From the IMG/VR virus record IMGVR_UViG_3300042691_022450: a stretch of 64,000 bases of DNA; one strand, given 5' to 3'. Both the position numbers and the translations under genes were made by a program. The notes beneath the pieces are model-generated. The model made no database searches and was not told the origin of the DNA. It was given only the letters and a program-made list of their open reading frames with translations. Each line of letters starts with the position of its first letter. Position 1 is the first letter of the stretch. Below, piece by piece: positions 21,494-61,642 of this stretch. The stretch comes from a virus.

Positions 21494-21937
21494 ATGGACG
21501 CACAAGATTTTCGTAGTCTTCAAGAAGCATATTTGGAAGTCGTTAGTAATAATAATGAGTTGAGTGAAATGTCTTATAAAAAACTTCCTGTCGGCAAAAT
21601 GATGAGAAAAGTTGAATATAGGGCAGAAAGAGAAGCAGATACGAGAGCAGATGCAGAAACAGCAGACACAACTGCTTTTATGAGTCATAATCGGGCATTA
21701 AGAGCGCACAAACGCGCAGAAAGAAATAAAGAAAGAAGCAATAGAATGATAAATGTTGCTGATACTCATAGTAAGAAAGCAGCAAAGGCAAAATCAAAAC
21801 TTAAAAAAGAACAAGTAGACATCTACGACATCATCCTCTCACACTTACTTGATGAAGGATATGCTGAAACACCAGAAGCAGCAGAACGTATTATGGTTCA
21901 TATGAGTGAAGAGTGGAGAGAAGGTATTGTTGGTTGA
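21494..21937 (+). CDS. Basic putative internal head protein (LLDEGYA family)
   Basis: Late promoter; MDAQDFRSLQEAY N-cap; conserved C-domain DIYDIILSHLLDEGYA..MSEEW. Confidence 0.55.
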   Translation: MDAQDFRSLQEAYLEVVSNNNELSEMSYKKLPVGKMMRKVEYRAEREADTRADAETADTTAFMSHNRALRAHKRAERNKERSNRMINVADTHSKKAAKAKSKLKKEQVDIYDIILSHLLDEGYAETPEAAERIMVHMSEEWREGIVG

Positions 21938-22041
21938 ATAAATAATGATGCTTATGTGTGTCGCAACCATAGCAAAGATTAGGTGCTTTCGGGCACCTTT
22001 TCTTTTATAAATACTATTGCGACACAACATAAAGCAGAACT
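21937..22041 (+). promoter_or_regulatory. Endonuclease leader cassette 1 (AATAAATA, antisense segment, terminator hairpin, TATAAATA, target)
   Basis: GCTTATGTGTGTCGCAA (21950-66) complementary with two bulges to TTGCGACACAACATAAAGC (22017-35); hairpin AGGTGC-TTTCGG-GCACCT-TTT. Confidence 0.75.
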
Positions 22042-22749
22042 ATGACTTCACAAAGTCCAAGGATTTATACGTATAAAATTACCTTTGAAGAAGTTCCATA
22101 TTACTATTATGGAGTTCATAAGGAAAAATATTTTAATGAAGAGTATTGGGGTTCACCGAAAACAAATAAATGGTGTTGGGAACTGTATACTCCAAAGAAA
22201 CAAATATTAGAGATATTTGAGTTTAGTGATAATGGGTGGATAGTGGCAAATTTAGTTGAAGATAGATTAATTAAATTATTTTATAATGCAGATAAATGGT
22301 GTCTTAATGAAAGTTGTGGTCCAAGAGTATCTTTAAGAGTAAACAGAGAAACTGGAAGGAAATCTGGATTAAAGAATAAAAAGAATGGAGTTGGTATACA
22401 CGGAAGGACAAAGGATAAAATAATTGAGGATGGTAAAAAAGGTGGAATAAAACTAAGAGAGTTGGGGAAAGGAATACACGGATTAACCGACAAAGAGAAG
22501 AGTGAAATTAATAAATTAAATGGGAAAAGAGGTGGAGAGAGTGTTAAAAGAAATAAACTAGGGATTTTTTCTTTAACAAAAGAAAATCTTAGTGAAAATG
22601 GTAAAGTCGGTGGTAAAATGTCTTGCTCACAGAAATGGAAATGTATGGAAACGGGATTCATTTCTAATCCAGGAAATTTAACAAAATATCAAAGAGCAAG
22701 AGGAATAGATACTTCAAAAAGGATTAGGATATTTGAGGACACTCTATGA
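22042..22749 (+). CDS. Free-standing GIY-YIG-like (Seg-type) homing endonuclease
   Basis: RIYTYKITF..YYYYGVH..YWGS..E..CLNE; GIHG repeats; paralog of 60857..61642. Confidence 0.65.
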   Translation: MTSQSPRIYTYKITFEEVPYYYYGVHKEKYFNEEYWGSPKTNKWCWELYTPKKQILEIFEFSDNGWIVANLVEDRLIKLFYNADKWCLNESCGPRVSLRVNRETGRKSGLKNKKNGVGIHGRTKDKIIEDGKKGGIKLRELGKGIHGLTDKEKSEINKLNGKRGGESVKRNKLGIFSLTKENLSENGKVGGKMSCSQKWKCMETGFISNPGNLTKYQRARGIDTSKRIRIFEDTL

Positions 22750-22823
22750 ACCGTCCACAGACACGAGACGGGAGACCGAAAATGCCCTATACTGTAAGGG
22801 TAGTCAAGACAGACCAACTTATT

Positions 22824-23924
22824 ATGGAAACCGCAATCGAACTGCTGAAGTCAAAATACGGCACAGAATTTGGAGCAGAAGCAGTTCGTGCTGTTGCTGA
22901 TGAACTTGAGATCAGTTATGCAACTCTTTCCAAGAAACTTACTGACTTTAAAGTTTCTAGGGGGAAGTGGAATCTTGAAATTACTCAAGAAAAAATTGAT
23001 GAACTTGAAGAAACTTACAAAGCACCATCTGTGAATCCAATTTCTACCGTGGAAAGTGTAAAGCAAAACCTTATTCCAGAAAAGGACAATACTTTTGTAT
23101 CTTTTGGCAACTTTACTGATGTTAAAAAAGTTGTTCAATCTGGGATTTTTTATCCTGTGTTCATCACTGGTCTCTCTGGTAATGGTAAAACTTTTAGCAT
23201 TGAGCAATCTTGTGCTCAACTGAAAAGAGAACTCATTCGTGTTAATATCACGATTGAGACTGACTCTGATGATTTGCTTGGTGGTTTCCGTCTGGTGAAT
23301 GGAGAAACTGTATGGCATAATGGCCCTGTGGTAGAAGCAATGGAACGTGGTGCTATTCTACTCTTGGATGAGATTGACTTGGCATCTAACAAGATTATGT
23401 GCCTGCAATCGGTGCTTGAGGGTAAAGGTGTATTCCTTAAGAAAATTGGTAAGCACGTTTCTCCCAAGGCAGGTTTCAATGTGATTGCAACTGCAAACAC
23501 TAAAGGTAAGGGTAGTGATGACGGTCGTTTCATTGGCACGAATGTTCTTAACGAGGCATTCCTGGAACGATTCCCAATTACCTTTGAGCAAGAGTATCCT
23601 ACCATTACTATTGAGACTAAAATCTTGACGAAAGTGGCAGAGTCTCTTAATATTCCTATGATTGGTGAGCACACTGATTTCGTTAAGCACCTTTGCACTT
23701 GGTCTGAGATTATTCGTAAGACCTTCAATGATGGTGGTATTGATGAAGTCATCAGCACTCGTCGTCTGGTTCATATCATCAAGGCATATTCTATCTTCGG
23801 TAAGAAAGACAAGGCACTTAAGGTTTGTCTGAATCGTTTTGATGATGAAACCAAATCCACTTTTGTAGAACTCTACGACAAAATTGACGCAGAGTTTCAA
23901 CAAAACAACACAGAAGAGGGATGA
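22824..23924 (+). CDS. MoxR/CobS-like AAA+ ATPase
   Basis: Walker A GLSGNGKT, Walker B LLLDEID, ATANTKG, NEAFLERF, STRRL; start moved downstream of promoter module. Confidence 0.9.
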   Translation: METAIELLKSKYGTEFGAEAVRAVADELEISYATLSKKLTDFKVSRGKWNLEITQEKIDELEETYKAPSVNPISTVESVKQNLIPEKDNTFVSFGNFTDVKKVVQSGIFYPVFITGLSGNGKTFSIEQSCAQLKRELIRVNITIETDSDDLLGGFRLVNGETVWHNGPVVEAMERGAILLLDEIDLASNKIMCLQSVLEGKGVFLKKIGKHVSPKAGFNVIATANTKGKGSDDGRFIGTNVLNEAFLERFPITFEQEYPTITIETKILTKVAESLNIPMIGEHTDFVKHLCTWSEIIRKTFNDGGIDEVISTRRLVHIIKAYSIFGKKDKALKVCLNRFDDETKSTFVELYDKIDAEFQQNNTEEG

Positions 23925-26472
23925 TTCCCTTTTCTGCGATATATAGAACAACCTTGCATTTTCTTTCCTATGACCCAACTTTTTCTGGATAAAAACGCAG
24001 ATATGATCTACGAAGATCTTCAAGAAAGTTATGATGAAGACAATCAAGAGGAAGAATATAGAGAAGATAGAATGGACCAAATGATTTCAAAATATGGTTA
24101 CTGATCACAGGAAAAAAATGATGCAAAACACTCAGGAACTCGTGGATTTTTATAAACGTGAAGACTTGGAAGAATTTGCAAAATACCTTGGGGTTGATTG
24201 TGAAGACTACATTGAGTATCTTCATCCAGATGTTGATTTTGATGACTGGTCCAGATGATGAATACTGACGGATACATCAGTGCTGATAGGATGTGGGCAG
24301 CAGTTCCGTATGGGAATAGATATATTTCCATATACAATGGTGAACAGATCTGTATGCACAATACATTAGAAACTGCAAAAAAATTCATTCAAAAAGAAAA
24401 TCGCAAAAGAAAATGATTAGTTTAATTGAAACTTTTCAACAGAACAAAAATTCTGTTTATGTTCGTGCTGTTTTAGAAGATATGGTTCAGGTTTATCCAT
24501 CCACTCTTTATGATCCACCAGAATATGGTCCTGCTCTTTGCGAATCATCTTTTATATTTGATGAAGATGAGATTCTTCCTGAGAATGAAGAGGAACTAAT
24601 TGATTATCTTGATGGACTTGATTTGGATTGGAAAATAGTAGACACTAGTGATTGTAGTTTTGGATTTGTAGATTAAATACCTATAGAATTAGGAGTATGA
24701 ATATGGTTGCTCTGGTGCTTTCAACAACCATTATATCTTGTTCGCAAGCAATTCAATTGGTTAATAATGTAATACAGGTAGTTGGTTTAAATAATCAACA
24801 AAAAGTAGAAATTATTGAAGAAATAAAAAAAATTGTTCCATCTTGCCCAGTCATTATAAAAGAAAACAAAAATGCCAAACCAATCAAAAAACCAAGCAAT
24901 TGATTTAATGCTTGAGGACCTTCATACAAAAAATGTTGAAGTTCGCACAACAGTAAAAAAACTTGGTTGTGAATATGAATTGGAAGAATTGAAGATAAAT
25001 CTTATAGAGTATCTTTATTCATTAAAGAAATGACTTCCTATTATTTTTGGTTTGGTATTTTTGTGTTTGTTGCATATTTGATTGTAATAGATAATAGTGT
25101 TGCATATGCAATTACATTAATTTCTAAGATACTGAAATTTCAATACGAAAAACAAAAATGGTGGTTGCTTCACAATCCACGCAATCCAATAGTAAAATGG
25201 TTTATGTATAGGAAATCAATGAAACTGGCAGAGGAACTTATGAAAGAGTTTGCAGAAAAAGAAACAATTCAGGAATACGAAACCAAATGAAAAAGAAACC
25301 AGAAACGATTGAGTTCCCTCACGCACAATTTCCTATTCTTGTTATACATAAAGATGGAAAGGAATTGAAGGACACTAAAAAGTGTTACTTTCAAAGTATG
25401 CATTATGCCGAAAAGTATATTGTTAAATCCAAGTTCAAAAAAACAGATTATCAACTATTCATTAAACCTGGAACAGATGTGGAGACTATGGTGCAAGGCA
25501 CTGGGAGAAAAAGTAGGAAAAAACAATAAGGAAGCAGATAAAGTTGCAATTATTAGAACAATTCTATTTGCAACTTATTTTATTACTAACATATTCATAT
25601 GTGCCAATGCGATTAGGCATTGGAACGATAATACTACAATTTATATTCAAATTGATGGAGTTAAAAGTGGGACAACTTTATGATGATTGCTTTTATGTTC
25701 AAGAAAAAAAATATGGACTCTGGTATTCTACCGACAAAGAAGGCAACGGACTTATCACATCTCTCACTGAAGAGCAATGTGTATCAGCAACCCGTTTTTA
25801 TCTTAAAGGACGGCAGGAAGGTTTCTCTGAATCCAAATTTTATGAAGGGGAAGTAAGTGGAAAACTCTAAAGATAAATTATATCTTTTATTTTCTTTGGG
25901 GTTTATGATTTTTCTTGACCTACTTGTAATTGGTGGGTTATTATATAAAGGACAAGCAAATTTTATTGAAGTTTATAAACATTTAAAAATATGACTAAAA
26001 GAACTTATACGCAAAAAAATGGAACAATCTGGGAATGGAACGAAACTGCAGAACTTTCTAAATTCATTAAACAACTATATACAAAAGAACCAATTCCCCC
26101 AACTAGACCCAACAACACCGTGGTTTGAATACAACAGTTACGTTGAATGTTGCAACAGTTTAGGGAGACCAGTAAGACTTGGTGGATTTATGAGATATCA
26201 AGCATATCTTAAGGAAATAGGAGTAATCTAATGTTTAGATGGATTGATGATTTTTTAAAACCTTATCAGATTCCAACAACTGATATGACACTTTTTGATA
26301 AAATTATTGATTTGGAAGAAAAGTATAATGCTCTTCTTCTTGATATCAAAAGATTGGAAGAAGAAAATGTAGAACTCACTAACTGTTTGTATGAAGTTGA
26401 AAACAGACTACAAGAAAAGATTGACAATATTCATCCCATAACTTACAATCTAAGCAATTATACTCTAGACAA

Positions 26473-26763
26473 ATGACTTTTAATGTAACTCTCCGTTCTG
26501 CTGACGGAACCGAACAAACTATTCAATGCCCCGAAGACCAATATATTCTTGATGCTGCTGAATATGCTGGCGTAGATCTTCCTTCCAGTTGCCGTGCTGG
26601 TGCTTGCTCTGCCTGCGTTGGTAAAGTTGTGGAAGGTGAAGTGGATAATTCCGAACAATCCTTCCTTGATGATGACCAAATGAATGAAGGTTTCTCTATG
26701 CTTTGTGTTGCATATCCTCTGAGTGATTGTGTGATTGAAACAGAGCAAGAGGAGAATCTCTGA
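26473..26763 (+). CDS. petF: Plant-type [2Fe-2S] ferredoxin
   Basis: [14 protein letters not shown]...QSFLDDDQ...[10 protein letters not shown]. Confidence 0.95.
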
Positions 26764-27110
26764 TGTACGAAACTCTAACTGAATTCGAAAGAGCACTTGC
26801 CCGATTTGGTGATAAGGTTGCTCTAATTGCTGGTCTTGAAATTAGTGATAAAATTTCACCAGAGGAAGCATATCAACAGATTAAAGACCTTTATAAAGAA
26901 CTTAAAACTCTTCGTAAATTTGAAAAGAAATCTTGGGAATCTGATATTCATATTGATATGTGATGGAAGATACTCTAAAAATCACTCAAAATGAAGATGG
27001 GTCTTATACTATGGACTGGGACAAGGAAGACCCCAAATGGTCTTGGATGAATTCCTTGACTTCAAAGGAGATTCAGGTTATTATGGAACAAGCAATCGAG
27101 GACTTTATTA

Positions 27111-29242: not shown

Positions 29243-29269
29243 ATAAAAATAAAAATAAAAGTTAAAAAA

Positions 29270-31026: not shown

Positions 31027-31061
31027 CAATATATATAAATAACTAAAAAGTATTTGTAAAA

Positions 31062-31694: not shown

Positions 31695-31778
31695 GATTGA
31701 AGGACACTTCCCAAACCGTCCCAAGGTGTCCCCGAGGCACCTTTTTTTGTGCTATACTACTTGAAACACAAGACTCTT

Positions 31779-32186: not shown

Positions 32187-32203
32187 AAGAAAAAAGTAGT
32201 CAG

Positions 32204-32692: not shown

Positions 32693-32765
32693 GCTGGTTT
32701 AGCAATCTGGCGAATGCAATCGACTCATAATCGATGGGAGGCGAGTTCGATCCTCGCAACCAGCA
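32693..32765 (+). tRNA. tRNA-Met/Ile2 (CAT)
   Basis: Cloverleaf; ATCGA-CTCATAA-TCGAT. Confidence 0.85.
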
Positions 32766-32805
32766 CTTGACAATCTAAGCACACTCTGCTATGATTGTCT
32801 TATAA

Positions 32806-32880
32806 GGGACTGTTGCTTATTGGTTAAAGCCCACTGCTTATAACGGTGTGAACAGAGTTCAATTCTCTGCAGTCCTACCA
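32806..32880 (+). tRNA. tRNA-Ile (TAT)
   Basis: CACTG-CTTATAA-CGGTG; encoded CCA; TTGACA-17-TATGAT promoter upstream. Confidence 0.85.
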
Positions 32881-32881: not shown

Positions 32882-33224
32882 GCGAGTATGGTGGAATCGG
32901 TAGACACACCAGACTTATGAAAATTGAGCCTCATTTGGGAAACCTTATGAGTGTAATTCCTCAAATTCGGTGAAACCTGTAAAATGGCAATACCGAGCGA
33001 AGTTGCAAGACAGTTGGAAAGACAACGGCTACCCAATGTGCTTCTAGAGAGGGTTGGAATTATCTAGAAAATGCAAAACGTGTAGAGACTAGACGGGGAA
33101 CACCTAAACTGAAAGGTATGGTGAAGGTATAGTCCAGACCACAAACCGAAAGGGTAGTGAAAACTATAGTGGTAAGAAAATCTGTTGGGCATTGCCCGTG
33201 GGAGTTCAAGTCTCCCTACTCGCA
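32882..33224 (+). tRNA. trnL: tRNA-Leu (TAA) split by a group I intron
   Basis: Exon 1 32882-32916 (...CCAGACTT), exon 2 33177-33224 (AAAATCTG...TACTCGCA). Confidence 0.9.
32917..33176 (+). ncRNA. Group I intron (260 nt, cyanobacterial/plastid trnL type)
   Basis: AATTGAGCC, CAAATTCGGTGAAACC, GTAGAGACT, GGTATAGTCC core elements; terminal G; inserted after U34. Confidence 0.9.
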
Positions 33225-36015: not shown

Positions 36016-36087
36016 GGGACATTAACTCAGCGGAAGAGTATCCGGCTTTTAACCGGTTAGTCCTCGGTTCGAATCCGAGATGTCCCA
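36016..36087 (+). tRNA. tRNA-Lys (TTT)
   Basis: CCGG-CTTTTAA-CCGG cloverleaf. Confidence 0.9.
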
Positions 36088-36091
36088 TCGT

Positions 36092-36182
36092 GGGAGAGTG
36101 GCTACTGTTGGCAATATGTGTAGCGGAAGTCTGTAAAACTTTTACATCGGAACCATCGGGGGTTCAATTCCCTCCTCTCTCA
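36092..36182 (+). tRNA. tRNA-Tyr (GTA)
   Basis: GAAGT-CTGTAAA-ACTTT; long D-loop. Confidence 0.8.
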
Positions 36183-36186
36183 CCTT

Positions 36187-36258
36187 GGCCCTATAGTGAA
36201 GTGGTTATCACGCATCTCTGTCCAAGATGTATCACGAGTTCAAATCTCGTTAGGGTCG
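36187..36258 (+). tRNA. tRNA-Asp (GTC)
   Basis: CATCT-CTGTCCA-AGATG. Confidence 0.9.
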
Positions 36259-36261
36259 CCT

Positions 36262-36333
36262 GGTCTCGTCGTCTAATGGTTAGGACGTTGCTCTTTCACA
36301 GCAAAAACGAGGGTTCAAATCCCTTCGAGACTA
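36262..36333 (+). tRNA. tRNA-Glu (TTC)
   Basis: TTGCT-CTTTCAC-AGCAA. Confidence 0.9.
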
Positions 36334-36337
36334 CCTT

Positions 36338-36411
36338 GGGAACATAGCTCCAATTGGTAGAGCACAGGATTGAAGATCTTGGTGTTGTCGGTTCAAATCC
36401 GACTGTTCCCG
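36338..36411 (+). tRNA. tRNA-Phe (GAA)
   Basis: CAGGA-TTGAAGA-TCTTG. Confidence 0.9.
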
Positions 36412-36414
36412 CTT

Positions 36415-36569
36415 GCCCTTGCCGTTGGGACGGTGAAATAGGGTTCAATTTGACAAAGTAGTTTTAGATAGGTGTGCTGAACCCACACTGATAAGATTCC
36501 CCTCGTAAGGGTACTTCTTGTACGAAACCTCAAGTCTATTGAGAGTGGGATCATTCCCCACCAAGGGCA
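36415..36569 (+). ncRNA. 155-nt structured RNA with tRNA-like ends
   Basis: Acceptor-like GCCCTTG/CAAGGGC-A; T-arm-like GTGGG-ATCATTC-CCCAC; internal GGGTTCA/TGAACCC pairing. Confidence 0.6.
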
Positions 36570-36574
36570 CATAA

Positions 36575-36646
36575 TGGAATATAACTCAGTGGTAGAGTGC
36601 TGTGCTGATAACGCAGAAGTCGTGAGTTCAAATCTCACTATTCCAA
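36575..36646 (+). tRNA. tRNA-Ile (GAT)
   Basis: CTGTG-CTGATAA-CGCAG. Confidence 0.9.
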
Positions 36647-36697
36647 TTGTTGCCTTCGGGCAACATAAAACCCTTATGGGTTGCTTCAAGACAACAT

Positions 36698-36785
36698 AGA
36701 AAGGTGACCGAGAGGCTTAAGGTAGAAGTTTGCTAAACTTCCGAGGGAGAATATCCCTCCGAGGGTTCGAATCCCTCCCTTTCTG
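36698..36785 (+). tRNA. tRNA-Ser (GCT)
   Basis: GAAGT-TTGCTAA-ACTTC, long variable arm. Confidence 0.9.
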
Positions 36786-36787
36786 CT

Positions 36788-36859
36788 GGCAGTATAGCTG
36801 AGTGGTAAAGCACATCATTCATACCGATGCGACCGTGGGTTCAATTCCCACTACTGCCT
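36788..36859 (+). tRNA. tRNA-Met (CAT)
   Basis: CATCA-TTCATAC-CGATG. Confidence 0.8.
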
Positions 36860-36860
36860 T

Positions 36861-36932
36861 GTGTCATTATCCTAGTGGTTAAGGAACCAGTTTGTGAAAC
36901 TGGGTAGATGAGTTCAAATCTCATATGGCACC
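36861..36932 (+). tRNA. tRNA-His (GTG)
   Basis: CCAGT-TTGTGAA-ACTGG, C73. Confidence 0.85.
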
Positions 36933-36934
36933 CC

Positions 36935-37006
36935 GCCCTTATAGCTCAGTGGTAGAGCAACTCACTAGTAATGAGTAGGTCGTTGGTTCAAATCCGACTG
37001 AGGGCT
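36935..37006 (+). tRNA. tRNA-Thr (AGT)
   Basis: ACTCA-CTAGTAA-TGAGT. Confidence 0.85.
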
Positions 37007-37039
37007 CTTAACTATCTGGAATTTCCAGATAGTTCAAAT

Positions 37040-37110
37040 GTGTCTGTCGCCAAGTGGTAAGGCAGGAGTCTGCAAAACTCTTATCGTCAGTTCGATTCTG
37101 ACCAGACACT
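37040..37110 (+). tRNA. tRNA-Cys (GCA)
   Basis: GGAGT-CTGCAAA-ACTCT, U73. Confidence 0.9.
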
Positions 37111-37115
37111 CCTAC

Positions 37116-37187
37116 TCCAGAATCGACTAACAGGCAGGTCAACACACTTTGAATGTGTTTGTCTAGGTTCGAATCCTAGTTCTGGAA
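37116..37187 (+). tRNA. tRNA-Gln (TTG)
   Basis: ACACA-CTTTGAA-TGTGT. Confidence 0.85.
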
Positions 37188-37190
37188 CTT

Positions 37191-37263
37191 GTCCGTGTAG
37201 CCCAACGGAAGAGGCACTATCTTGAGGGGGTAGGTGTTGGAGGTTCAAATCCTCTCACGGACA
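37191..37263 (+). tRNA. tRNA-Leu (GAG)
   Basis: CTATC-TTGAGGG-GGTAG; short variable loop. Confidence 0.8.
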
Positions 37264-37266
37264 TAT

Positions 37267-37344
37267 GCTGGTGTAGCCCAATCGGCAGGAGGCAGCAGAT
37301 TCAAAATCTGAACAGTGTGGGTTCAAATCCCTCCACCAGTACCA
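37267..37344 (+). tRNA. tRNA-Leu (CAA)
   Basis: CAGA-TTCAAAA-TCTG; CCA encoded. Confidence 0.85.
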
Positions 37345-37345
37345 T

Positions 37346-37418
37346 ATCAGAGTAGCTCAATTGGTAGAGCAGTGGTCTCCAAAACTAAAGGTTGCGGGTT
37401 CAAGTCCTGTCTCTGATG
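37346..37418 (+). tRNA. tRNA-Trp (CCA)
   Basis: TGGT-CTCCAAA-ACTA, G73. Confidence 0.85.
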
Positions 37419-37422
37419 CCTT

Positions 37423-37457
37423 GTCCTCTTAACTCAGTGGAATAGAGTAAAGGACGC
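37423..37457 (+). pseudogene. tRNA remnant (acceptor and D arm only; probably Arg)
   Basis: GTCCTCT-TA-ACTC-AGTGGAATA-GAGT fused directly to AAAGGAC-G; anticodon and T arms missing. Confidence 0.6.
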
Positions 37458-37572
37458 TTGACATTCAATTGAATGTCATATATACTATTGATAGAGGTTA
37501 AGTCCCTGTTATATCCTTATGAGATATATCACACTTAATCCATCAAACACACAAACACACAGGAGTAAAAGA

Positions 37573-37776
37573 ATGTCACCTTACGAACTACGATTTGAGA
37601 TTTTTAAGCAAGCATATGCATTTGCTAACGATAAGTTTAGCATTGAGTATGATACTGCCCGTTGTTGGAATGAAAATTCTATGAATACGGTTAAGATGGA
37701 TTATCCAGATTTTCCTACATATGAGTATATTGAGCAACTTGCAGAGAAAATCAATAACTTTGTAAGTTCTAAATGA
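37573..37776 (+). CDS. Conserved small phage protein
   Basis: AGGAG RBS; MSPYELRFEIFKQA...AEKINNFVSSK. Confidence 0.7.
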   Translation: MSPYELRFEIFKQAYAFANDKFSIEYDTARCWNENSMNTVKMDYPDFPTYEYIEQLAEKINNFVSSK

Positions 37777-37815
37777 TAAAATAGGGTGATAACACCCTTT
37801 AAAGATAGATTATAA

Positions 37816-37902
37816 GGAAGGTCAATCCGATTGGTGACGGAACCGCTCTTGAAAAGCGTTGAGGTGTTAAAGCCCTTGGGAGTTCGACTCTCCCACCTTC
37901 CG
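37816..37902 (+). tRNA. tRNA-Ser (TGA)
   Basis: CGCT-CTTGAAA-AGCG, long variable arm. Confidence 0.9.
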
Positions 37903-37923
37903 TTGCTTCTTATGAAGCATAAT

Positions 37924-37995
37924 GCCCTTGTAGCTCAGTGGTAGAGCAATGGTTTTGTAAACCATTGGTCGCAAGTTCAAATCTTGTCGGGGGCT
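37924..37995 (+). tRNA. tRNA-Thr (TGT)
   Basis: ATGGT-TTTGTAA-ACCAT. Confidence 0.9.
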
Positions 37996-38031
37996 TGACA
38001 GAATTTCGATTCTGTCTTACAATCAAATAAT

Positions 38032-38106
38032 GCGAAATTAATTCAGCGGTAGAATGTCTGCCTTCCAAGCAGAACGTCAGGAGTTCGAATCTCCTATTTC
38101 GCTCCA
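38032..38106 (+). tRNA. tRNA-Gly (TCC)
   Basis: TCTGC-CTTCCAA-GCAGA; TCCA end. Confidence 0.9.
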
Positions 38107-38181
38107 GGGTGATTAACTCAGTGGTAGAGTTTCTCGTTTACACCGAGACAGTCGGGGGTTCGAATCCCTCATCACCCACCA
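38107..38181 (+). tRNA. tRNA-Val (TAC)
   Basis: TCTCG-TTTACAC-CGAGA; ACCA end. Confidence 0.9.
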
Positions 38182-38255
38182 CGGGATGTAGCTCAACTTG
38201 GTAGAGTGCTTGATTTGGGTTCAAGATGTTGCAGGTTCAAATCCTGTCATCCCGA
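38182..38255 (+). tRNA. tRNA-Pro (TGG)
   Basis: CTTGA-TTTGGGT-TCAAG; C1:G72. Confidence 0.9.
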
Positions 38256-38611
38256 CTTGGAGAATCTAAATACCTCCAAACACTACAAAATCATTATGTC
38301 ACTGATTTCACAAAAAGACAGAACGATTGCCATTGAGGCACTAGACTTTTATCTATTCAATAAGAAATTTGATCTTACTGAAGAAAAAAGAATGGAACTT
38401 AATGCACTTCTGAATTGGATTAAAATCGAATACAATAAACATGAAAATTAATCTTTGGCACTGTAAAGAAATGAATCAATGGAGATGGACTTTATGTGAA
38501 GATTCTCGTCCAATTGTTAAACAAGAATCAGGTCAAAGAGAAAATTTACGAGATGCTATGAATGACGTAGTAAATACAGTTGAGTATTTAATGAATACTT
38601 GACATTCTTAT

Positions 38612-38684
38612 TCCAGATGACCGAGCAAGCGAACGGGCCCGACTGTTAATCGGAGATTGGTAGGGGCAGTACCTACATCTGGAG
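38612..38684 (+). tRNA. tRNA-Asn (GTT)
   Basis: CCGA-CTGTTAA-TCGG; atypical T-loop GGCAGTA. Confidence 0.75.
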
Positions 38685-38685
38685 T

Positions 38686-38733
38686 TTCTAACCTCTAAAA
38701 TATTATAAATAATAATAAAGTTGGAGGTTAGAA
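38686..38733 (+). promoter_or_regulatory. RBS-sequestering hairpin with late promoter in its loop
   Basis: TTCTAACCTCTAA...TATAAATA(38704-11)...TTGGAGGTTAGAA-TG. Confidence 0.75.
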
Positions 38734-39278
38734 TGTCTGGTAAATCAGTTGTTGAATTTCGTCAAAGAAGAAAAAGATGGGCAGTTGAAGCATTTGGTGG
38801 AAAATGTGGTATTTGTGGTTATGATAAGTGTGTTGAAGCATTAGATTTTCACCACATAGACCCAAATGAAAAAGATTTTTCTATAACTGCATCTGTAGCA
38901 AACAGACAAGTATTTGTTGAAGAACTTAAAAAGTGTGTTTGTTTATGTTCTAACTGCCATCGTGAAGTTCATTCTGGAATTACAAAAATCCCAGATAATG
39001 TTCTAAAATTTGATGAAAGTTTTTCCAATAAACCTGTTCCAGAAAAACCAAAGCACCCTTGTAAAGAGTGTGGGAAACTAACAATCATTACTCAAACTTT
39101 TTGTTCAGTAAAATGTTCTCATAAAAGCAGAGAAGTTGTTGATTGGCCAACTAATCAAGAATTACAAAAATTAGTTCTTGAGAATGGTTATCGTTCTACT
39201 GGAAGAATGTTTGGAGTTAGTGATAATGCTGTTAGAAAAAGGTTAAATAAATTATCCAAATATCGTGGGGAAGTGTAA
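38733..39278 (+). CDS. HNH homing endonuclease
   Basis: CGICGY..LDFHHIDP..KCVCLCSNCHREVH; zinc ribbon; C-terminal HTH; 3' end overlaps tRNA-fMet. Confidence 0.85.
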   Translation: MSGKSVVEFRQRRKRWAVEAFGGKCGICGYDKCVEALDFHHIDPNEKDFSITASVANRQVFVEELKKCVCLCSNCHREVHSGITKIPDNVLKFDESFSNKPVPEKPKHPCKECGKLTIITQTFCSVKCSHKSREVVDWPTNQELQKLVLENGYRSTGRMFGVSDNAVRKRLNKLSKYRGEV

Positions 39279-39338
39279 AGGTTGCACAGAAGTCTCATAA
39301 GCTTCAGGTTGGTGGTTCGATTCCACCCCCCGCCACCA
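39264..39338 (+). tRNA. tRNA-fMet (CAT)
   Basis: C1 mismatch; GAAGT-CTCATAA-GCTTC; ACCA end. Confidence 0.8.
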
Positions 39339-39341
39339 AAT

Positions 39342-39415
39342 GCCCATATACTCCAACTGGCAGAGAGGGTGGACTTAGAATCCATACAGTGTAGGTTCGA
39401 CTCCTATTATGGGCA
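39342..39415 (+). tRNA. tRNA-Leu (TAG)
   Basis: GTGGA-CTTAGAA-TCCAT. Confidence 0.85.
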
Positions 39416-39419: not shown

Positions 39420-39492
39420 GGGGTCTTAGCTCAATTGGTAGAGCATTTGCTTTGCAAGCAAGAGGTTAGGGGTTCGAGTCCCCTAGATTCCA
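39420..39492 (+). tRNA. tRNA-Ala (TGC)
   Basis: G3:U70; TTGC-TTTGCAA-GCAA. Confidence 0.9.
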
Positions 39493-39494
39493 TT

Positions 39495-39740
39495 GTCCAA
39501 GAGGATAAGAAGTCTGATGTTTCGGACGGGGTTTCGATTACCCCCATCTCCATTACTTGGGGGTGCCAGGTTTCGACGGGGCATAAAGGTCTTATCTGTT
39601 GACGGGACAAGAAAACAAACGCAAACAAAATTGTTGCTTTCTCTCGTCAAACCGCATTGGTTTGAACTAAACGAGTGAGGGGGTTATAAGTTTCCTTCTT
39701 ACCCAAAACTTACAAGGAGGTGTAATGCCTCCTATTTTTG
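39495..39740 (+). ncRNA. ssrA: Permuted two-piece tmRNA (cyanobacterial type); outer ends approximate
   Basis: 3' module GACGGGGTTTCGATTACCCCCATCTCCA precedes 5' module GGGGGTGCCAGGTTTCGACGGGG; G3:U70; tag ANKIVAFSRQTALV* at 39621-39665. Confidence 0.85.
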
Positions 39741-41789: not shown

Positions 41790-41902
41790 AGGAAGGTAGC
41801 TCAGTTGGTAGAGCAACGTAAAATATATCTTGCCAAAGATATTCACAGCAATTAAACTGCATTGGGGGCCGTTGGTCGCAAGTTCGAATCTTGCCCTTCC
41901 TA
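41790..41902 (+). ncRNA. tRNA-like RNA (TGG anticodon) with 40-nt insert in anticodon stem
   Basis: Removing 41819-41858 yields ACGGC-ATTGGGG-GCCGT and a full cloverleaf. Confidence 0.75.
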
Positions 41903-42050
41903 CTTATAGATAGTTCAGCAATTTACCCATTTTATAGGAAAAACAACTATCTAGAACAAATAAGAGATTATTCAGCAACTCCAAAGGATAACGGTTTATC
42001 AATAGGTAAACTTAGAGAGAATCGAATCTCTCAAATAATCTCGAAAATAC

Positions 42051-42164
42051 GGGGATGTAGCTCAGTTGGTAGAGCAACGTAAAATATATCTTGTCAAAGG
42101 ATATTCACAGCAATTAAATCGCATTCTAAGCCGTAAGTTACAGGTTCAAGTCCTGTCATCCCCT
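42051..42164 (+). ncRNA. tRNA-like RNA (TCT anticodon) with 41-nt insert in anticodon stem
   Basis: Removing 42080-42120 yields ACGGC-ATTCTAA-GCCGT and a full cloverleaf. Confidence 0.75.
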
Positions 42165-42166
42165 TC

Positions 42167-42284
42167 GAGAATGTAGCCCAAATGGCAGAGGCACCGTTTA
42201 TAAAAAAGTCATCTTGTTGTTAAGATGCGTCAGCATTAAATAAAAAGGCACGATCCAGTGTAGGTTCGAATCCTACCATTCTCA
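42167..42284 (+). ncRNA. Leu-type tRNA scaffold with CAGCAT module, no clear anticodon arm
   Basis: GAGAATG/CATTCTC acceptor, GTAGG-TTCGAAT-CCTAC T arm, CATCTT-gttgtt-AAGATG-cgt-CAGCAT. Confidence 0.65.
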
Positions 42285-51033: not shown

Positions 51034-51089
51034 GACACTTGAAGAACTGGCACAGTAGGCATCCAGAGTGGTCTGTGATGCCTTATAAT
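51034..51089 (+). promoter_or_regulatory. Early promoter module
   Basis: GACACTTGAAGAACTGGCACA...TATAAT at +50. Confidence 0.8.
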
Positions 51090-52757: not shown

Positions 52758-52864
52758 AATAAATAAGAATGTCTATAAGAACCGCAATTCTCTACAGACA
52801 GATTAGGTGCTCTTTAGGGCACCTTTTCTATTATAAATACTAATGCGGTTTTTGTAGAATAGAA
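52758..52864 (+). promoter_or_regulatory. Endonuclease leader cassette 2
   Basis: TCTATAAGAACCGCA (52772-86) pairs with TGCGGTTTTTGTAGA (52844-58), 15 bp including 2 G:U; late promoter 52832-39. Confidence 0.8.
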
Positions 52865-53716
52865 ATGGTAAATCCTAACAGGTTTTATACCTATGCATAT
52901 TTGCGTAAGGACAGAACTCCTTATTACATAGGTAAAGGTCAAAAAATAAGAGCATATCAAGGTAGTGGAAAACCTTGTAGAGTTCCAAAAGATAAATCAA
53001 GAATAATCTTCCTCAAACAAAATCTAACAGAAGAGGAAGCATTTAGACACGAAATCTATATGATTGCCGTGTTTGGTAGAAAGGATAATGGAACTGGTAT
53101 TCTTCGTAATAAAACTAATGGTGGAGAAGGTCCTTCAGGTCTTATTCATAGTGATGAAACTAAAAGAAAATTGAGAGAAATTAATATAGGAAGAACTTTT
53201 TCTGAGGAACATATCAAAAAAATATCTGAAGGTTGTAAAGGGAAAAATAAAGGACCCAGAAAACCTCTTTCAGAAGAACATAAACTAAAAATAAGTAAAT
53301 TATGTAAAGGTAAAAAACATACAAATGAAGCAAAACTAAAAATAAGTCAAAGTAATAAAAATAGAATAGTTTCGGAAGAAACTAGAGAAAAAATGAGAGA
53401 AGCAAAGAAAAATATAACAGAAGAAACTAGAAGAAAACTAAGTGAAGCAAGGAGAAACATAACAGAAGAAACTAGAAGAAAAATGAGTGAAGCAAAGAAG
53501 GGTAAAAGTCGTTCTCAGGAAATTGTGAAAAAAATATCTGAAAAAAACAAAGGTAAAAAGCATTCAGAAGAAACTAAAAGAAAACAGAGTGAAGCAAAAA
53601 AAGGTAAAAACAAAGATAAAAAATGGTGGAATGATGGTTGTGGAAATACTAAATTTTGTTTTGAATGTCCTGGACCAAATTGGATTTCTGGTCGTGGAAA
53701 AATAAAAAAAGCATAA
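52865..53716 (+). CDS. GIY-YIG-like endonuclease with NUMOD3 repeats
   Basis: FYTYAYLR..PYYIGKG..R..E..NKTNGGEG; HSEETKRKxSE repeats. Confidence 0.8.
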   Translation: MVNPNRFYTYAYLRKDRTPYYIGKGQKIRAYQGSGKPCRVPKDKSRIIFLKQNLTEEEAFRHEIYMIAVFGRKDNGTGILRNKTNGGEGPSGLIHSDETKRKLREINIGRTFSEEHIKKISEGCKGKNKGPRKPLSEEHKLKISKLCKGKKHTNEAKLKISQSNKNRIVSEETREKMREAKKNITEETRRKLSEARRNITEETRRKMSEAKKGKSRSQEIVKKISEKNKGKKHSEETKRKQSEAKKGKNKDKKWWNDGCGNTKFCFECPGPNWISGRGKIKKA

Positions 53717-56576: not shown

Positions 56577-56632
56577 GACACTTGAAGAACTGGCACAAGA
56601 GCATCCCACAGGTGCTCCTTTTGCCTTATAAT
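56577..56632 (+). promoter_or_regulatory. Early promoter module
   Basis: GACACTTGAAGAACTGGCACA...TATAAT at +50. Confidence 0.8.
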
Positions 56633-57948
56633 ACTTTCATACCAAACGAGGTTTCCCAATGACTATTGAAATCACCAATCAAGTTCGTATTCAAGAACAT
56701 TCTGACTATTGGTACACTGCCGAAGACATTCATCTTGATGTTGGATGTGAGGGTTTTACTGTTTCTTATTGGGAGTTTAATAAAGAAAAAGGAGATAAAC
56801 GAATCCAACATATTTGTATGAATAAGGAAGAAGCACTTGCTATTGCTGATGCCATCTACAAACTCTTTAAGAACTGAAATGATTGACCTTACACAACTGA
56901 CCGAAGAACAACTCAACGAACTTGAACTTCAAATTCAAAAGCATAAGGAACAACAGAAGGTAAAGGATGCTTTGGAAAACCTAAAAGGTTATAAAGTAAC
57001 TTTTTATATTAGGTTTGACCCTGAAAAGCATAAGGATCACGATATGCTTACAAATAAAGGGAAACTTGACCCAGAAATTTTTGCTGATTATCTGTGCGAT
57101 AATCTTGTTACAGACCTGATTAGAAATTTTGAATTGTATGGTTATGAGGATGTAAATTATCCTACTGTGGAAGTAGCAACAAAACAAGAAATTGAAGAGA
57201 AATTTTGAGGAAACTGAAATGACTGAACGCATTTATGAACTTGAGTGTGGAATCAGAAAACTCAACGGAGAATATTGAAATGAACCAAGCAAACAAGAAC
57301 TCATTTTTCTTTTATGTCCTCAAAGAAGGTGGTGGAAAAATTGACCCAAGAAATATAGAGTTTATGATTGAAGCACTCAAAGAATGGTTGCCTAATACTA
57401 TTGGATATCCAGACACCGACTATTCTATGAATGCTTATAAGTTGGGGCAAAGAGAATACAAAGAATTCATTATGAGGAACCTCAAATGACTGAAAACATT
57501 CAAAAGTATCCAGAGGTAAATCGTGTTGAAGTCATCTCAAGTGAGGGTGAAGAGTTTTTTTGGGATGAATGGGATGAGTGTTCTAAAGTTCAGGTAAGTT
57601 TTCATAATGATGGGAAGACACTCAAAGTATTTCTCACGGGGAACATAAAATGACTAAACACGAGATTGGAGCAACAATTGGATTTTATATTGTTGTGGGA
57701 TTGATGGGTTGGGCACTTGTGTCTTTCTTTCCTCTTACTTGGGGACAGGCACTCATAATCTCTTGGATGTTTAACAAACTTATTGATGTATTAGAATGAC
57801 TATCAAACGCATCAAAGTCAAAGAAACTCAAAAATACTGGGGGGACTTTGATGGTTCTCTTGAAAGCATCATTGCTTCACTTCAACAAGATTTGAATGAT
57901 GGTTGGGAAGGTATTGAGATTGAATATGGGTATCATGGTGACCCAGAC

Positions 57949-58091
57949 GAATATTATCTCTACAAGCATCGTGAAGAAACCGACAAAGAGTATGAGAAAC
58001 GGATGAAGCAATTGGAGAAAGAAAAGGCAGAGAAAGTAAAAGCAAAGGAACGAAAACTCAAACAACTCAAGAAAGACCTTGCTTCCTTGAC
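57949..58091 (+). repeat. 143-bp exact direct repeat, copy 1 (in ORF 57796..58125)
   Basis: Identical to 58921..59063. Confidence 0.85.
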
Positions 58092-58920
58092 CGATGAAGA
58101 AAGGGAATTGTTGAAACTGAAATGACTGCCTTCACTTACAAAGGATACGGACGCATCTACACCAATCCAGAGAACATTCAAGATGTAAAAAACATTATTC
58201 AAGAACTTGATGAGTTTGAGTGGGAATATTATCCAGAAAGTCTTGTAGGTTTCTGGGATGATTATCCAATAGTTGTGTATGTTGGTAAGTTTGAATTGGA
58301 TGAAGAAAAGTTCAAACAAATCTGTAAAGAACGAAACATTCCTGTTTTTGTCTTTAATGCTTATGATGATGAGTATCCTCGTGGTTATGTCAAAACTTTG
58401 AATAGAGAAGAAATCAAAACACTTTCTTATGGAGAACTGAAATGACTATCAAAGCAACTGAACTTCTCAAACTCTTTTCCAAAGCAGAAAAACTTGATTT
58501 GAGTGTTGCGGTTCTTGAGGAAAAAGATGGGGATTATGTAATTCGTATCTTTGCAATGTTTTCACCCAAAAATTTTGATGAGTATGTAGTCATCACTCAA
58601 GAGGGTGAGAGTGATTGGAGTAAAGGATACCAAAGTTTTGATGCTGTGATGGATGTTCTTGATGAGAAACTGGAAGAACAAAAGCAAAAAGAAATCAAAG
58701 AACAAAAACGACAAGAACTGATTGCTCGTTTGACTGATGAAGAAAAAGAACTACTTAACCTGAAATGACTAACCAACCTAAAAAAATTCAAGTCAAAGAA
58801 ACTAAAGAATATTGGGGGAACTTTGTAGGTTCTTTTGAAGACATTATCTTTTCACTTCAAAAGTGTAAAGATATGGGTTGGGAAGGTCTTGAAATTCAAT
58901 ACGATATGGATTATGGGAAT

Positions 58921-59063
58921 GAATATTATCTCTACAAGCATCGTGAAGAAACCGACAAAGAGTATGAGAAACGGATGAAGCAATTGGAGAAAGAAAAGGC
59001 AGAGAAAGTAAAAGCAAAGGAACGAAAACTCAAACAACTCAAGAAAGACCTTGCTTCCTTGAC
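58921..59063 (+). repeat. 143-bp exact direct repeat, copy 2 (in ORF 58765..59097)
   Basis: Identical to 57949..58091. Confidence 0.85.
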
Positions 59064-59092
59064 TGATGAAGAAAAAGAACTTTTAAATCTAA

Positions 59093-59206
59093 ACTAAATA
59101 GAAATGTCTGTTTGGACGGCAATCTCTACGGACAGATTAGGTGCTTTCGGGCACCTTTTCTATTATAAACTCTTATAAATAGTAATGCCGTCCAAGTAGA
59201 ATAGAA
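59093..59206 (+). promoter_or_regulatory. Endonuclease leader cassette 3
   Basis: TCTGTTTGGACGGCA (59107-21) pairs with TGCCGTCCAAGTAGA (59186-200), 2 G:U; late promoter 59174-81. Confidence 0.8.
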
Positions 59207-60013
59207 ATGGTAAATCCTAACAGGTTTTATACTTACGCATATTTGCGGGAAGACAGAACACCTTATTACATAGGAAAGGGACAAGGTAATAGGGCATATA
59301 AAAAAAGAAAAGGTGAAGTAAAACCACCAAAAGATAAGTCAAGAATAATTTTCTTAAAACAAAACCTAACAGAAGAAGAAGAAGCATTCAAGCACGAAAT
59401 CTATATGATTGCTGTGTTCGGTAGAATAGATTTAGGAACTGGGATATTGAGAAATAAAACTGATGGTGGAGAAGGTTCATCTGGATGGGTTCCAAGTGAA
59501 GAATGTAAAAGAAAACAAAGTGAAATAAAAAGAGGTGAAAATAATCCTAATTATGGCAAATCACCTTCTGAAGAAACCAGAAGAAAATTAAGTGAGTCAA
59601 ATAAAGGAAAATCGCGTTCCCAAGAAACCAGAATAAAACAAAGCAAAGCAAAACAAAATAAAAAATATTGGAATGATGTGAATGGTAATCTTGTTCGTTC
59701 TGTAGAATGTCCTGGGAAAGATTGGTTTCCTGGAATGGGCAAAAGAAGTGAGGATTTAATACGAACCGGAAGAGAAAGTTCTTGTTATGGTAAGTTGTGG
59801 TGGAATGATGGAAATGGGAATCGTATTCTTTCAGTAGAATGCCCAGGAGAAAACTGGATTCTTGGTCTTGATGAAGAACATAAAGAAAAAATAGGTAAAG
59901 GAAATAAAAATAAACGATGGTGGAATGATGGAAATGGTAATACTAAATTTGCTGAAGAATGTCCTGGTGGAGGTTGGGATGCTGGTCGGGGAAAATTAAA
60001 AGAACATAAGTAA
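59207..60013 (+). CDS. GIY-YIG-like endonuclease, NUMOD3 and WWNDG-CPG repeats
   Basis: Paralog of 52865..53716. Confidence 0.8.
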   Translation: MVNPNRFYTYAYLREDRTPYYIGKGQGNRAYKKRKGEVKPPKDKSRIIFLKQNLTEEEEAFKHEIYMIAVFGRIDLGTGILRNKTDGGEGSSGWVPSEECKRKQSEIKRGENNPNYGKSPSEETRRKLSESNKGKSRSQETRIKQSKAKQNKKYWNDVNGNLVRSVECPGKDWFPGMGKRSEDLIRTGRESSCYGKLWWNDGNGNRILSVECPGENWILGLDEEHKEKIGKGNKNKRWWNDGNGNTKFAEECPGGGWDAGRGKLKEHK

Positions 60014-60752
60014 TATGAGGACACTTCTTAAACTGCACCACTTGCCCTTGCGGTGAGTGGGTTTTTGGTCTATAATACTTCCATACAAAAATCACAAAAT
60101 GCCTTTATCTGACGAAGAAAAACTCACACTTCTCCTCAAGGTTCTCAAAGAATTCGCAGAGGCAAAACACTGTTATGATATAGAAGGAGATGATTATACT
60201 CCAAGTGCTATTAGTTATGATGTTGCCTTTGACGATGGTATTGATTATGGTGAGATTACCTTTGCCCGCACACTATTAGAACAAATCGGTGAAACTTTTG
60301 AATACCCTTGTGTGAAAGAAAATGACTAACAAAGTAAAATTCACACAAGTATCACGGGTGATTGACCCTAAGACCCGTATTCATTATCTTGATGCGGTTG
60401 ATGAGTATGGGAACCATTGGATGGCACAGATGGAGCACAACACAGAGAAATGGTTGTGTTTTAGTAGAGTATGGTATGAAGACCCCCAACAACCTTTTGA
60501 TACACTATGACTAAACATCCTGCTAATGAGTATCTTGACCCCCAAGAAGATGCTCAACTTTCATTTAACAAGTGGTTTTATGAAGATTTTTATGGTAGAT
60601 TTACATATCGGTATGAATACTTTATGGACGACATAAAAATTGAGGATGAGAACCAAAGGAAACAAATTCTTATTAATTGGGTTGAAAGTGCATTTCTGTG
60701 TGGATACGAATATGCTCTTTATAAGCAACTGGAAGAAGAGGTAGAGAACGAT

Positions 60753-60856
60753 AATAAATAAAAATGTCTGTTGATACTGCAATCTCTACGGACAGATTAG
60801 GTGCTTTCGGGCACCTTTTCTATTATAAATAGTAATGCAGTATCAACAGAATAGAA
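60753..60856 (+). promoter_or_regulatory. Endonuclease leader cassette 4
   Basis: TCTGTTGATACTGCA (60767-81) is the exact reverse complement of TGCAGTATCAACAGA (60836-50); late promoter 60824-31. Confidence 0.8.
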
Positions 60857-61642
60857 ATGACTTACCAAAGTCCAAGAATATACTTGTATAAAATTACTTT
60901 TGAAGAAGTTCCATATTACTATTATGGAGTTCATAAGGAAAAATACTTCAACGAAGAATACTGGGGTTCTCCAATAACAAACAAATGGTGTTGGGAGATT
61001 TATACTCCAAAGAAACAAATACTTCAACTTTTTGATTTCACGGATGAAGGTTGGTTGAAAGCACAAGAAATTGAAGAAAGATTGATAAAACCATTTTTCA
61101 ATACTGATAAATGGTGTTTGAATGAAAGTTGTGGTGGTAAAATATCTCTAAAAGTTTTGCGTGAAAGTGGAAATAAATGCTATGAACTTGGTTTAGGAGT
61201 TCATTCATTAACCAAAGAGCAAAGAAGTGAAAATGGTAAAAGAACTGGTAAAATTTCTGGAAAAAAAGGAGGTGAAAGAGCATATGAACTTGGTGTTGGA
61301 GTTCACGGAAGAACAAAAGAACAGATGAGTGAAGATGGGAAACAAGGAGGAAAAAAATCATACAAACTTAAAATAGGAATACACGGAAGAACCAAAGAAC
61401 ATATGGTTGAAAATGGTAGAAAGTGTGGAAATAGGGCATATGAACTTGGGATTGGAATTCACGGACAAAGCAAAGAAAAAATGACGGAAAATGGAAGAAG
61501 AGGTGGAAAAATAGGAGGTAAAAAAACAAGTTCTCAAAGATGGATGTGTCTTGAAACTGGATTTATCACAAACGCAGGTGCTCTTTCAAATTATCAAAAG
61601 AAAAATGGAATAGACACCTCTAAACGAGTGAGAATAGTGTAA
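60857..61642 (+). CDS. Free-standing GIY-YIG-like (Seg-type) endonuclease
   Basis: Paralog of 22042..22749. Confidence 0.65.
   Translation: MTYQSPRIYLYKITFEEVPYYYYGVHKEKYFNEEYWGSPITNKWCWEIYTPKKQILQLFDFTDEGWLKAQEIEERLIKPFFNTDKWCLNESCGGKISLKVLRESGNKCYELGLGVHSLTKEQRSENGKRTGKISGKKGGERAYELGVGVHGRTKEQMSEDGKQGGKKSYKLKIGIHGRTKEHMVENGRKCGNRAYELGIGIHGQSKEKMTENGRRGGKIGGKKTSSQRWMCLETGFITNAGALSNYQKKNGIDTSKRVRIV

Follow-up and report, generated by a model that had tools for sequence, protein, structure and literature searches.

How four nuclease genes of one phage come to share a leader, and what that leader does, is the question raised by IMG/VR virus record IMGVR_UViG_3300042691_022450, here considered as a stretch of 64,000 nucleotides (nt; hereafter, the window). 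The window is part of a T4-like cyanophage, with every gene lying on the + strand. In each of the four leaders, ~105 nt in length, a variable segment is complementary to the start region of the nuclease mRNA over 14-15 nt. A preliminary description of this DNA, made without database searches, had proposed that a separately terminated short RNA acts as an antisense antitoxin dedicated to each nuclease. The leader is best explained, with a probability of roughly 70%, as a T4-type translational mask that contains a nested late promoter and a terminator, and that moves together with the nuclease gene.

The leaders lie on the + strand at 21938-22044, 52759-52867, 59094-59209 and 60754-60859. A search with a hairpin pattern yielded four matches on this strand (positions 21977, 52801, 59135 and 60795) as compared to none expected in shuffled sequences, while a covariance model prepared from 60 homologues and applied with filters off matched these same four leaders and nothing else in the window. 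Pattern and model agree on the number of leaders. Their parts appear in the order described earlier, namely, 5' to 3', an (A/C)TAAATA box, 5 nt, the variable segment, a GC-rich, terminator-like hairpin followed by a T run (H2), TATAAATA, 4 nt, the 3' arm, 6 nt and the ATG. The outer (A/C)TAAATA box is found at, or just past, the stop codon of the upstream gene and, in each window copy, 5 nt before the first base of a local hairpin (H1). The variable segment plays two roles, serving both as the 5' strand of H1 and as the 5' arm of a long-range helix, the 3' arm of which is found in the 5' untranslated region (5'UTR) of the nuclease gene, with TATAAATA being 4 nt upstream of each 3' arm. The arms are ~75 nt apart, with H2 being enclosed between them. 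Sequence inspection and duplex folding bore out the pairing originally reported, with 15/15 pairs in copy 4, two G:U pairs among the 15 bp of each of copies 2 and 3 and, in copy 1, a longer helix interrupted by two single-base bulges, as well as the 6 nt that separate the end of the helix from the ATG in all four copies. The parts of each leader are as follows.

21938-21944, + strand: copy 1, outer box ATAAATA of the late-promoter type, immediately 3' of the TGA with which the upstream gene ends; predicted +1 G21950; column conserved in 60/60 aligned leaders.
21950-21973, + strand: copy 1, H1, with the 5' arm at 21950-21966; from the short-RNA fold; duplex of -22 to -24 kcal/mol.
21981-21998, + strand: copy 1, H2, GC-rich with a T run and terminator-like; from pattern and fold.
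22006-22013, + strand: copy 1, inner late promoter TATAAATA; predicted +1 G22019.
22017-22035, + strand: copy 1, 3' arm in the 5'UTR, ending 6 nt before the ATG at 22042.
52759-52765, + strand: copy 2, outer box ATAAATA; predicted +1 G52771.
52771-52799, + strand: copy 2, H1, with the 5' arm at 52772-52786; from duplex and fold.
52805-52824, + strand: copy 2, H2, terminator-like; from a terminator scan.
52832-52839, + strand: copy 2, inner late promoter TATAAATA; predicted +1 G52845.
52844-52858, + strand: copy 2, 3' arm, 15 bp with two G:U, ending 6 nt before the ATG at 52865.
59094-59100, + strand: copy 3, outer box CTAAATA, overlapping the TAA of the upstream gene; predicted +1 G59106.
59106-59133, + strand: copy 3, H1, with the 5' arm at 59107-59121; from duplex and fold.
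59139-59156, + strand: copy 3, H2, terminator-like; from a terminator scan.
59174-59181, + strand: copy 3, inner late promoter TATAAATA, with a degenerate duplicate ahead of it; predicted +1 G59187.
59186-59200, + strand: copy 3, 3' arm, 15 bp with two G:U, ending 6 nt before the ATG at 59207.
60754-60760, + strand: copy 4, outer box ATAAATA, overlapping the TAA of the upstream gene; predicted +1 G60766; homology with a cassette of contig G003 begins here.
60766-60793, + strand: copy 4, H1, with the 5' arm at 60767-60781; from duplex and fold.
60799-60816, + strand: copy 4, H2, terminator-like; from a terminator scan.
60824-60831, + strand: copy 4, inner late promoter TATAAATA; predicted +1 G60837.
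60836-60850, + strand: copy 4, 3' arm, 15/15 pairs, ending 6 nt before the ATG at 60857.

Homologous leaders were sought with the H2 pattern in IMG/VR viral contigs. Among the loci scanned, 126 matches were obtained, 85 of which presented the whole architecture; the remaining 41 were dropped as unrelated hairpins or a truncated copy. Sixty unique leaders were aligned for tests of structure. As this canonical set was gathered by an exact H2 pattern, the invariance of H2 relative to the variable arms is in part an artefact of ascertainment, with divergent copies found by the covariance model presenting an H2 stem altered with compensation while retaining both promoter-type boxes and all spacings. 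The only close public record is that of Synechococcus phage S-SRM01 (family Kyanoviridae), which contains six copies of the leader. Five copies are found in the nearest relative of the window, four in a complete IMG/VR genome of 236 kb, and three and two, respectively, in two more large IMG/VR contigs. When the four window leaders were used to search Rfam 15, no family scored at or above its gathering score. That the leader represents a candidate RNA family absent from Rfam is well supported.

Examination of the genes found behind these leaders revealed at least five kinds, including two GIY-YIG-like classes, classical GIY-YIG, an HNH class with NUMOD3, Endo VII/HNH-like proteins and another class with no assigned fold. 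About 30 arm alleles are distributed among the 60 leaders and recur with different nucleases, with a single allele preceding up to four named nuclease classes and one unclassed gene. The variable arm is hence not specific to its locus, contrary to what had been thought when the window was considered on its own. In two contigs, an orphan module comprising the outer box, H1 and H2 was noted downstream of a lysozyme-like gene (L046, 2820-2950; L060, 1675-1800). Here, the inner promoter has decayed and the 3' arm and nuclease gene are gone, while the arm allele is one used elsewhere with HNH-type nucleases.

The 60 aligned leaders were examined for covariation, the check that the preliminary description had itself suggested. 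In the long-range helix of 15 bp, 96.7% of cells were paired, with 11 of the 15 pairs presenting compensatory changes involving 161 cells. Not one of 500 shuffles matched the observed percentage paired, number of compensated pairs, number of compensated cells or covariation score, and slid controls were paired in just 29-45% of cells. Wobble in the sense strand was strongly asymmetric (G:U 54 vs A:C 4), indicating that pairing is selected in the sense-strand RNA rather than in DNA, as had been proposed on the basis of the G:U pairs in the window. Both in the window copies and in almost every one of the 60 leaders, the helix extends from -21 to -7 relative to the AUG.

The alternative local fold noted earlier also proved to be real. 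H1 was 94.4% paired, with four of its six pairs being compensated. The outermost H1 pair, either G-C or A-U, is not part of the long helix, while at the next position, the H1 pair was retained in 16/60 leaders in which the long-helix pair was lost. Because the outside pair is compensated and because the H1 pair is kept where that of the long helix has been given up, H1 is selected in its own right. The leader family offers unusually clean covariation for two mutually exclusive folds. In agreement, folding of the window copies as read-through RNA yielded the long helix and H2 (-39 to -41 kcal/mol; z -4.8 to -7.4), whereas the minimum-energy fold of the short RNA comprised H1 and H2, with the variable core presented in a loop. 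RNA predicted to start from the inner promoter was unstructured, or open, in the same folds.

The distribution of the two boxes was considered next to what is known of T4-type late promoters, in which an 8-bp box is found about one helical turn upstream of the start, at -13 to -6 (PMC2988020). In the window, TATAAATA appears 11 times on the + strand and not at all on the - strand, 10-27 nt before the starts of open reading frames (ORFs). For ATAAATA, there are 19 occurrences on the + strand as compared to a single one on the - strand, with the same NATAAATA or CTAAATA form being found before other genes. The outer box is present in every real leader, even though the search pattern did not include it, and in all of the divergent copies. 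Given the T4 box spacing, the predicted outer +1 corresponds to the first paired base of H1; this base is always a purine (G in 43 and A in 17 of the 60 leaders). The start predicted for the inner promoter is a G, namely, base 2 of the 3' arm. A scan for terminators and sigma70-like promoters covered leaders 2-4 and reported no sigma70-like hexamer pair on the + strand of these three.

Taken with the covariation, this arrangement points to the following series of events, in which promoter activity, termination and translational block are inferred. RNA arriving from the co-oriented upstream operon or initiated at the outer late-type box would first fold H1 and then reach H2, where part of the transcripts would end, such that H2 would serve as a transcriptional stop ahead of the mask. 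RNA that reads through would hold both arms, allowing the 15-bp helix to close over H2 and the inner promoter sequence and, by covering -21 to -7 before the AUG, to prevent the ribosome from loading. RNA initiated at the inner TATAAATA would have base 2 of the 3' arm as its first nucleotide, lack the 5' arm and present an open leader. Because inner-promoter RNA lacks the 5' arm, nuclease synthesis would be confined to the late stage and to transcripts from the gene's own promoter. A mask acting in cis on read-through RNA explains the core of the leader with no need for an RNA acting in trans. Moreover, all 52 cassettes with enough flanking sequence to be oriented point in the same direction as the upstream gene, the arrangement that such a mask requires.

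Several observations nonetheless sit uneasily with a mask in cis. There is no clear Shine-Dalgarno sequence inside the helix and the AUG itself is unpaired. The outer (A/C)TAAATA box, found in every leader at fixed spacing, is not explained by the mask. H1 competes with the mask and yet is kept by compensatory changes, including those in the pair lying outside the long helix and at the position where 16/60 leaders favor H1. Finally, H2 may stop much of the incoming upstream RNA before the mask can form.

That the leader moves as a unit is seen upon comparison with related contigs. The cassette before nuclease 4 is 92% identical to a cassette in contig G003, with homology starting at the outer box. 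In the relative G001, the gene homologous to that preceding the cassette (47% identity) directly adjoins a different gene, with neither leader nor nuclease gene being present. Because homology starts at the outer box and because the leader is absent there from G001, the whole leader, including the outer box, is part of the mobile unit. The arms of the nuclease 4 and G003 cassettes differ at 9/30 positions, as compared to about 5/76 of the other leader positions. Diversifying selection on the arms is not claimed, since the scaffold between the arms is common, such that a single conversion tract from another leader suffices to explain these differences. Judging from the recurrence of alleles in the alignment, arms are shuffled among loci rather than specific to a locus or nuclease. 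Swapping of leaders by way of their common scaffold accounts for this best.

The outer box and H1 bring to the fore a second explanation, possible if doubtful, in which the outer late-type box directs synthesis of a discrete RNA of ~56-60 nt, comprising H1 and H2 and ending at the U run. Acting in trans, this RNA would base-pair with the late nuclease mRNA over the initial 14-15 nt of the latter and so restrict how well the mRNA is translated or how long it lasts, with the variable arm setting the target. Such an RNA could be added to the cis mask or represent the main function of the leader. In an elaboration that is put forward only tentatively, the leader would be a two-promoter device, with a late, stable hairpin RNA of ~56 nt from the outer box pairing with the 5' end of the inner-promoter mRNA, and with the ~30 arm alleles serving as a specificity code by which cassettes in one phage or in co-infecting phages would be throttled independently.

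Much of what was described above is consistent with a short RNA, including the presence of the outer box in all real leaders and all divergent copies, the + strand bias of the box and its appearance before other window genes, the purine at the predicted +1, corresponding to the first paired H1 base, the independent covariation of H1, and a predicted fold in which the variable core is exposed in a loop. A hairpin flush with the 5' end is typical of stable RNAs. In addition, the presumed target, at the very 5' end of the late mRNA, is left unpaired in the folds, cognate duplexes reach -19 to -25 kcal/mol, as compared to -3 to -16 kcal/mol for non-cognate combinations in the same genome, and the two contigs with orphan modules keep the outer box, H1 and H2 even though the nuclease gene and 3' arm are gone. 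On the other hand, the U run after H2 is short, such that termination may be partial. Arm alleles are, moreover, common to unrelated loci and nuclease classes, as best explained by leader swapping. Lastly, a cassette inserted against the direction of its neighbors would isolate the outer box as the sole source of the 5' arm, yet no such copy was found among the 52 orientable cassettes.

The earlier proposal that each nuclease is served by its own orthogonal arm was addressed with the 24 leaders of six multi-copy genomes, permuting genome labels. Arms are distinct within each genome, with 0/82 non-cognate pairs being at or below -17 kcal/mol, but such distinctness could not be told from chance (P about 0.2). 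A value of P 0.0035, obtained when the null was drawn from the whole leader pool, was rejected, given the bias of that pool. Were the short RNA real, it would correspond to a same-strand, tandem antisense RNA travelling with a mobile gene, and so offer a new layout for antisense control, as well as a ready-made set of orthogonal RNA repressors. The six copies in S-SRM01, the host of which is Synechococcus sp. KCZYC6, render the question of a short RNA directly testable.

Explanations that do not rely on RNA pairing fared far less well. The inverted repeat could act at the DNA level as a nuclease binding site, a cruciform or a recombination site. The arms do flank the inner promoter, and I-TevI binds an operator and represses its own late promoter (PMC2988022), such that an autorepressor operator of this type has precedent. 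Still, the asymmetry of the sense strand (54 G:T vs 4 A:C) fits RNA and not duplex DNA, while the presence of one arm allele before up to four nuclease classes and one unclassed gene excludes an enzyme-specific operator, leaving a DNA-level role highly improbable. Just as little probability is assigned to the leader being a peptide-dependent attenuator that relies on translation of an upstream ORF. As noted in the preliminary description, such an ORF of 21-24 codons is indeed present in all four window leaders, beginning just past the outer box and reaching a stop codon within the inner promoter. Its ATG is, however, found in just 31/60 homologous leaders, all three frames with respect to H2 are represented among these (15, 9 and 7), and several versions end after 3-12 codons, such that the proposed role was rejected.

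GIY-YIG and HNH/Endo VII-type enzymes recognize DNA through protein domains. The remaining suggestion, that the short RNA guides the nuclease, with the scaffold as protein handle and the variable arm as targeting segment, is only superficially encouraged by the pairing of a constant scaffold with a variable segment and was discarded as the least probable of all, given that within the window each arm matches its own leader only (next-best sites contain 2-3 mismatches and look like chance matches, and no other convincing arm target was found there), that one scaffold serves GIY-YIG-like and HNH/Endo VII-like families sharing no detectable similarity, and that unrelated nucleases have both scaffold and arm alleles in common.

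The genes found behind the four window leaders were assigned to two classes, as follows.

22042-22749, + strand: nuclease 1, 235 amino acids, class A; weak phrog_314 match (E 3e-4); 54% identical to nuclease 4.
52865-53716, + strand: nuclease 2, 283 amino acids, class B homing endonuclease with NUMOD3 motifs (Pfam NUMOD3, 7.7e-22; phrog_314, 5.8e-23).
59207-60013, + strand: nuclease 3, 268 amino acids, class B with NUMOD3 (Pfam, phrog_314); 48% identical to nuclease 2.
60857-61642, + strand: nuclease 4, 261 amino acids, class A; weak phrog_314 match (8e-5).

Leaders 3 and 4 are almost identical outside the arms, whereas no similarity could be detected between nucleases 3 and 4 (E 0.47), confirming the earlier observation that near-identical leaders precede members of different nuclease families. 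Nuclease 1 is probably a divergent GIY-YIG-type homing endonuclease, as judged from sequence comparisons. Language-model look-alikes (Atlas) of the N-terminal part of nuclease 4, which served as query rather than nuclease 1, belong to SegE/GIY-YIG clusters (0.93-0.95). At the same time, a Pfam search with nucleases 1 and 4 matched no domain, a PDB sequence search with nuclease 4 returned nothing, and hhalign profile comparison of class A with a clear GIY-YIG protein was negative. The AlphaFold model of class A was poor (mean predicted local distance difference test (pLDDT) score of 57, with the N-terminal part being below 50), and so offered no usable fold. The class A family (alignment A4, 18 members) contains no Pfam domain, yet presents an invariant Tyr-rich N-terminal motif, a conserved Trp-Cys-Leu-Asn block, repeated helical modules and a small C-terminal domain that is confidently predicted (pLDDT about 90).

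In the vicinity of these genes, several additional elements were noted. The start of a gene encoding an AAA_5 (dynein-related/MoxR-like) ATPase (22746-23924) overlaps nuclease 1 at its stop codon. On the - strand, one and the same 24-nt sequence able to form a hairpin appears at 58067-58090 and 59039-59062, inside the small genes 57796-58125 and 58765-59097, which are probably paralogues. Terminator-like hairpins are found directly 3' of nucleases 3 and 4, at 60038-60060 and 61664-61700, respectively. The latter overlaps a sigma70-like promoter (TTTACG, 17 nt, TATAAT) before the next gene and so resembles a PeSL cassette, while differences between its stem and that of the G003 copy are compensatory. 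Given these terminator and sigma70-like elements after nucleases 3 and 4, each cassette looks to be insulated on both sides.

Other RNA features of the window include a phage-encoded, permuted transfer-messenger RNA gene of the cyanobacterial type at 39480-39731 (Rfam RF01851, 115 bits) and about 26 transfer RNA (tRNA) genes in the regions 32693-32877, 36016-39415 and 41790-42284, with a tRNA-Sec-like match at 37816-37901. Three long 'tRNA' matches of 113-118 nt at 41790-42284 suggest the presence of inserts. A group I intron (RF00028, 58.8 bits) is found at 32907-33158, directly after the tRNA at 32806-32877.

Homing endonucleases must stay nearly silent to persist in a phage genome. If the leader indeed acts as a mask, then in T4-like cyanophages, nuclease control would itself be a portable, conserved RNA module common to unrelated nuclease genes and not one evolved for each insertion site. 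How this compares with known systems can be considered at several levels. The type I toxin-antitoxin systems implied by the term antitoxin involve a toxin that is a small, usually hydrophobic peptide and an antitoxin RNA from the opposite strand or a divergent gene; here, the targets are nucleases of 235-283 amino acids and the complementary segment lies on the same strand, upstream. Should the short RNA exist, it would recall the RNA-OUT/RNA-IN pair of IS10, in which a hairpin loop pairs with the 5' end of the mRNA for a mobile-element enzyme and blocks its start region. RNA-OUT is transcribed from the strand opposite RNA-IN, whereas the complementary segment of the leader is a same-strand inverted repeat upstream of its target.

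Closer to home are elements of T4-like phages and related DNA. PeSL cassettes join an early sigma70-type promoter to a stem-loop (PMC2839356, PMC4122927) and, like the leader, are short, conserved and portable units found between genes in variable regions, where they offer homology for module swapping. The papers describing PeSL cassettes draw no tie to nucleases or to a start-masking helix, while both boxes of the leader are late-type. Terminator-plus-sigma70-like elements of the PeSL kind are found downstream of nucleases 3 and 4. Dassa et al. (2009; PMC2677866) reported 5'UTR hairpins of free-standing endonucleases at 'fractured gene' loci in ocean metagenomes. These hairpins precede the start codons of the endonucleases, and TATAAATA is found in ten of them. 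Within the stem, two conserved motifs complement one another, and one hairpin was kept where the endonuclease had been lost. The resemblance to the leader is one of description only, involving the hairpin before the endonuclease start, TATAAATA and the complementary motifs, and the account, as far as it was considered here, describes no terminator, outer promoter, local hairpin or diversity of arm alleles. Because hairpins with TATAAATA were reported in that study, the basic idea is not new for cyanophage-like DNA.

Finally, a start-masking helix combined with a late promoter is well documented in T4, for I-TevI, I-TevII, I-TevIII, segB and gene e, and for mobE of Aeromonas phage Aeh1 (PMC2988022, PMC3014915). 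The link drawn in the preliminary description to the hidden starts of T4 was correct. As is predicted for the leader, the helix in these cases hides the translation start on upstream RNA, TATAAATA lies between the arms, transcripts made late are without the 5' arm, and the control element accompanies homing endonuclease genes. The leader differs in that its arms are ~75 nt apart and enclose a separate terminator-like hairpin, in that another late-type box lies further out, with a local hairpin that covaries at the start predicted for this box, and in that homologous forms of a single cassette are found, in many phages, before at least five kinds of nuclease.

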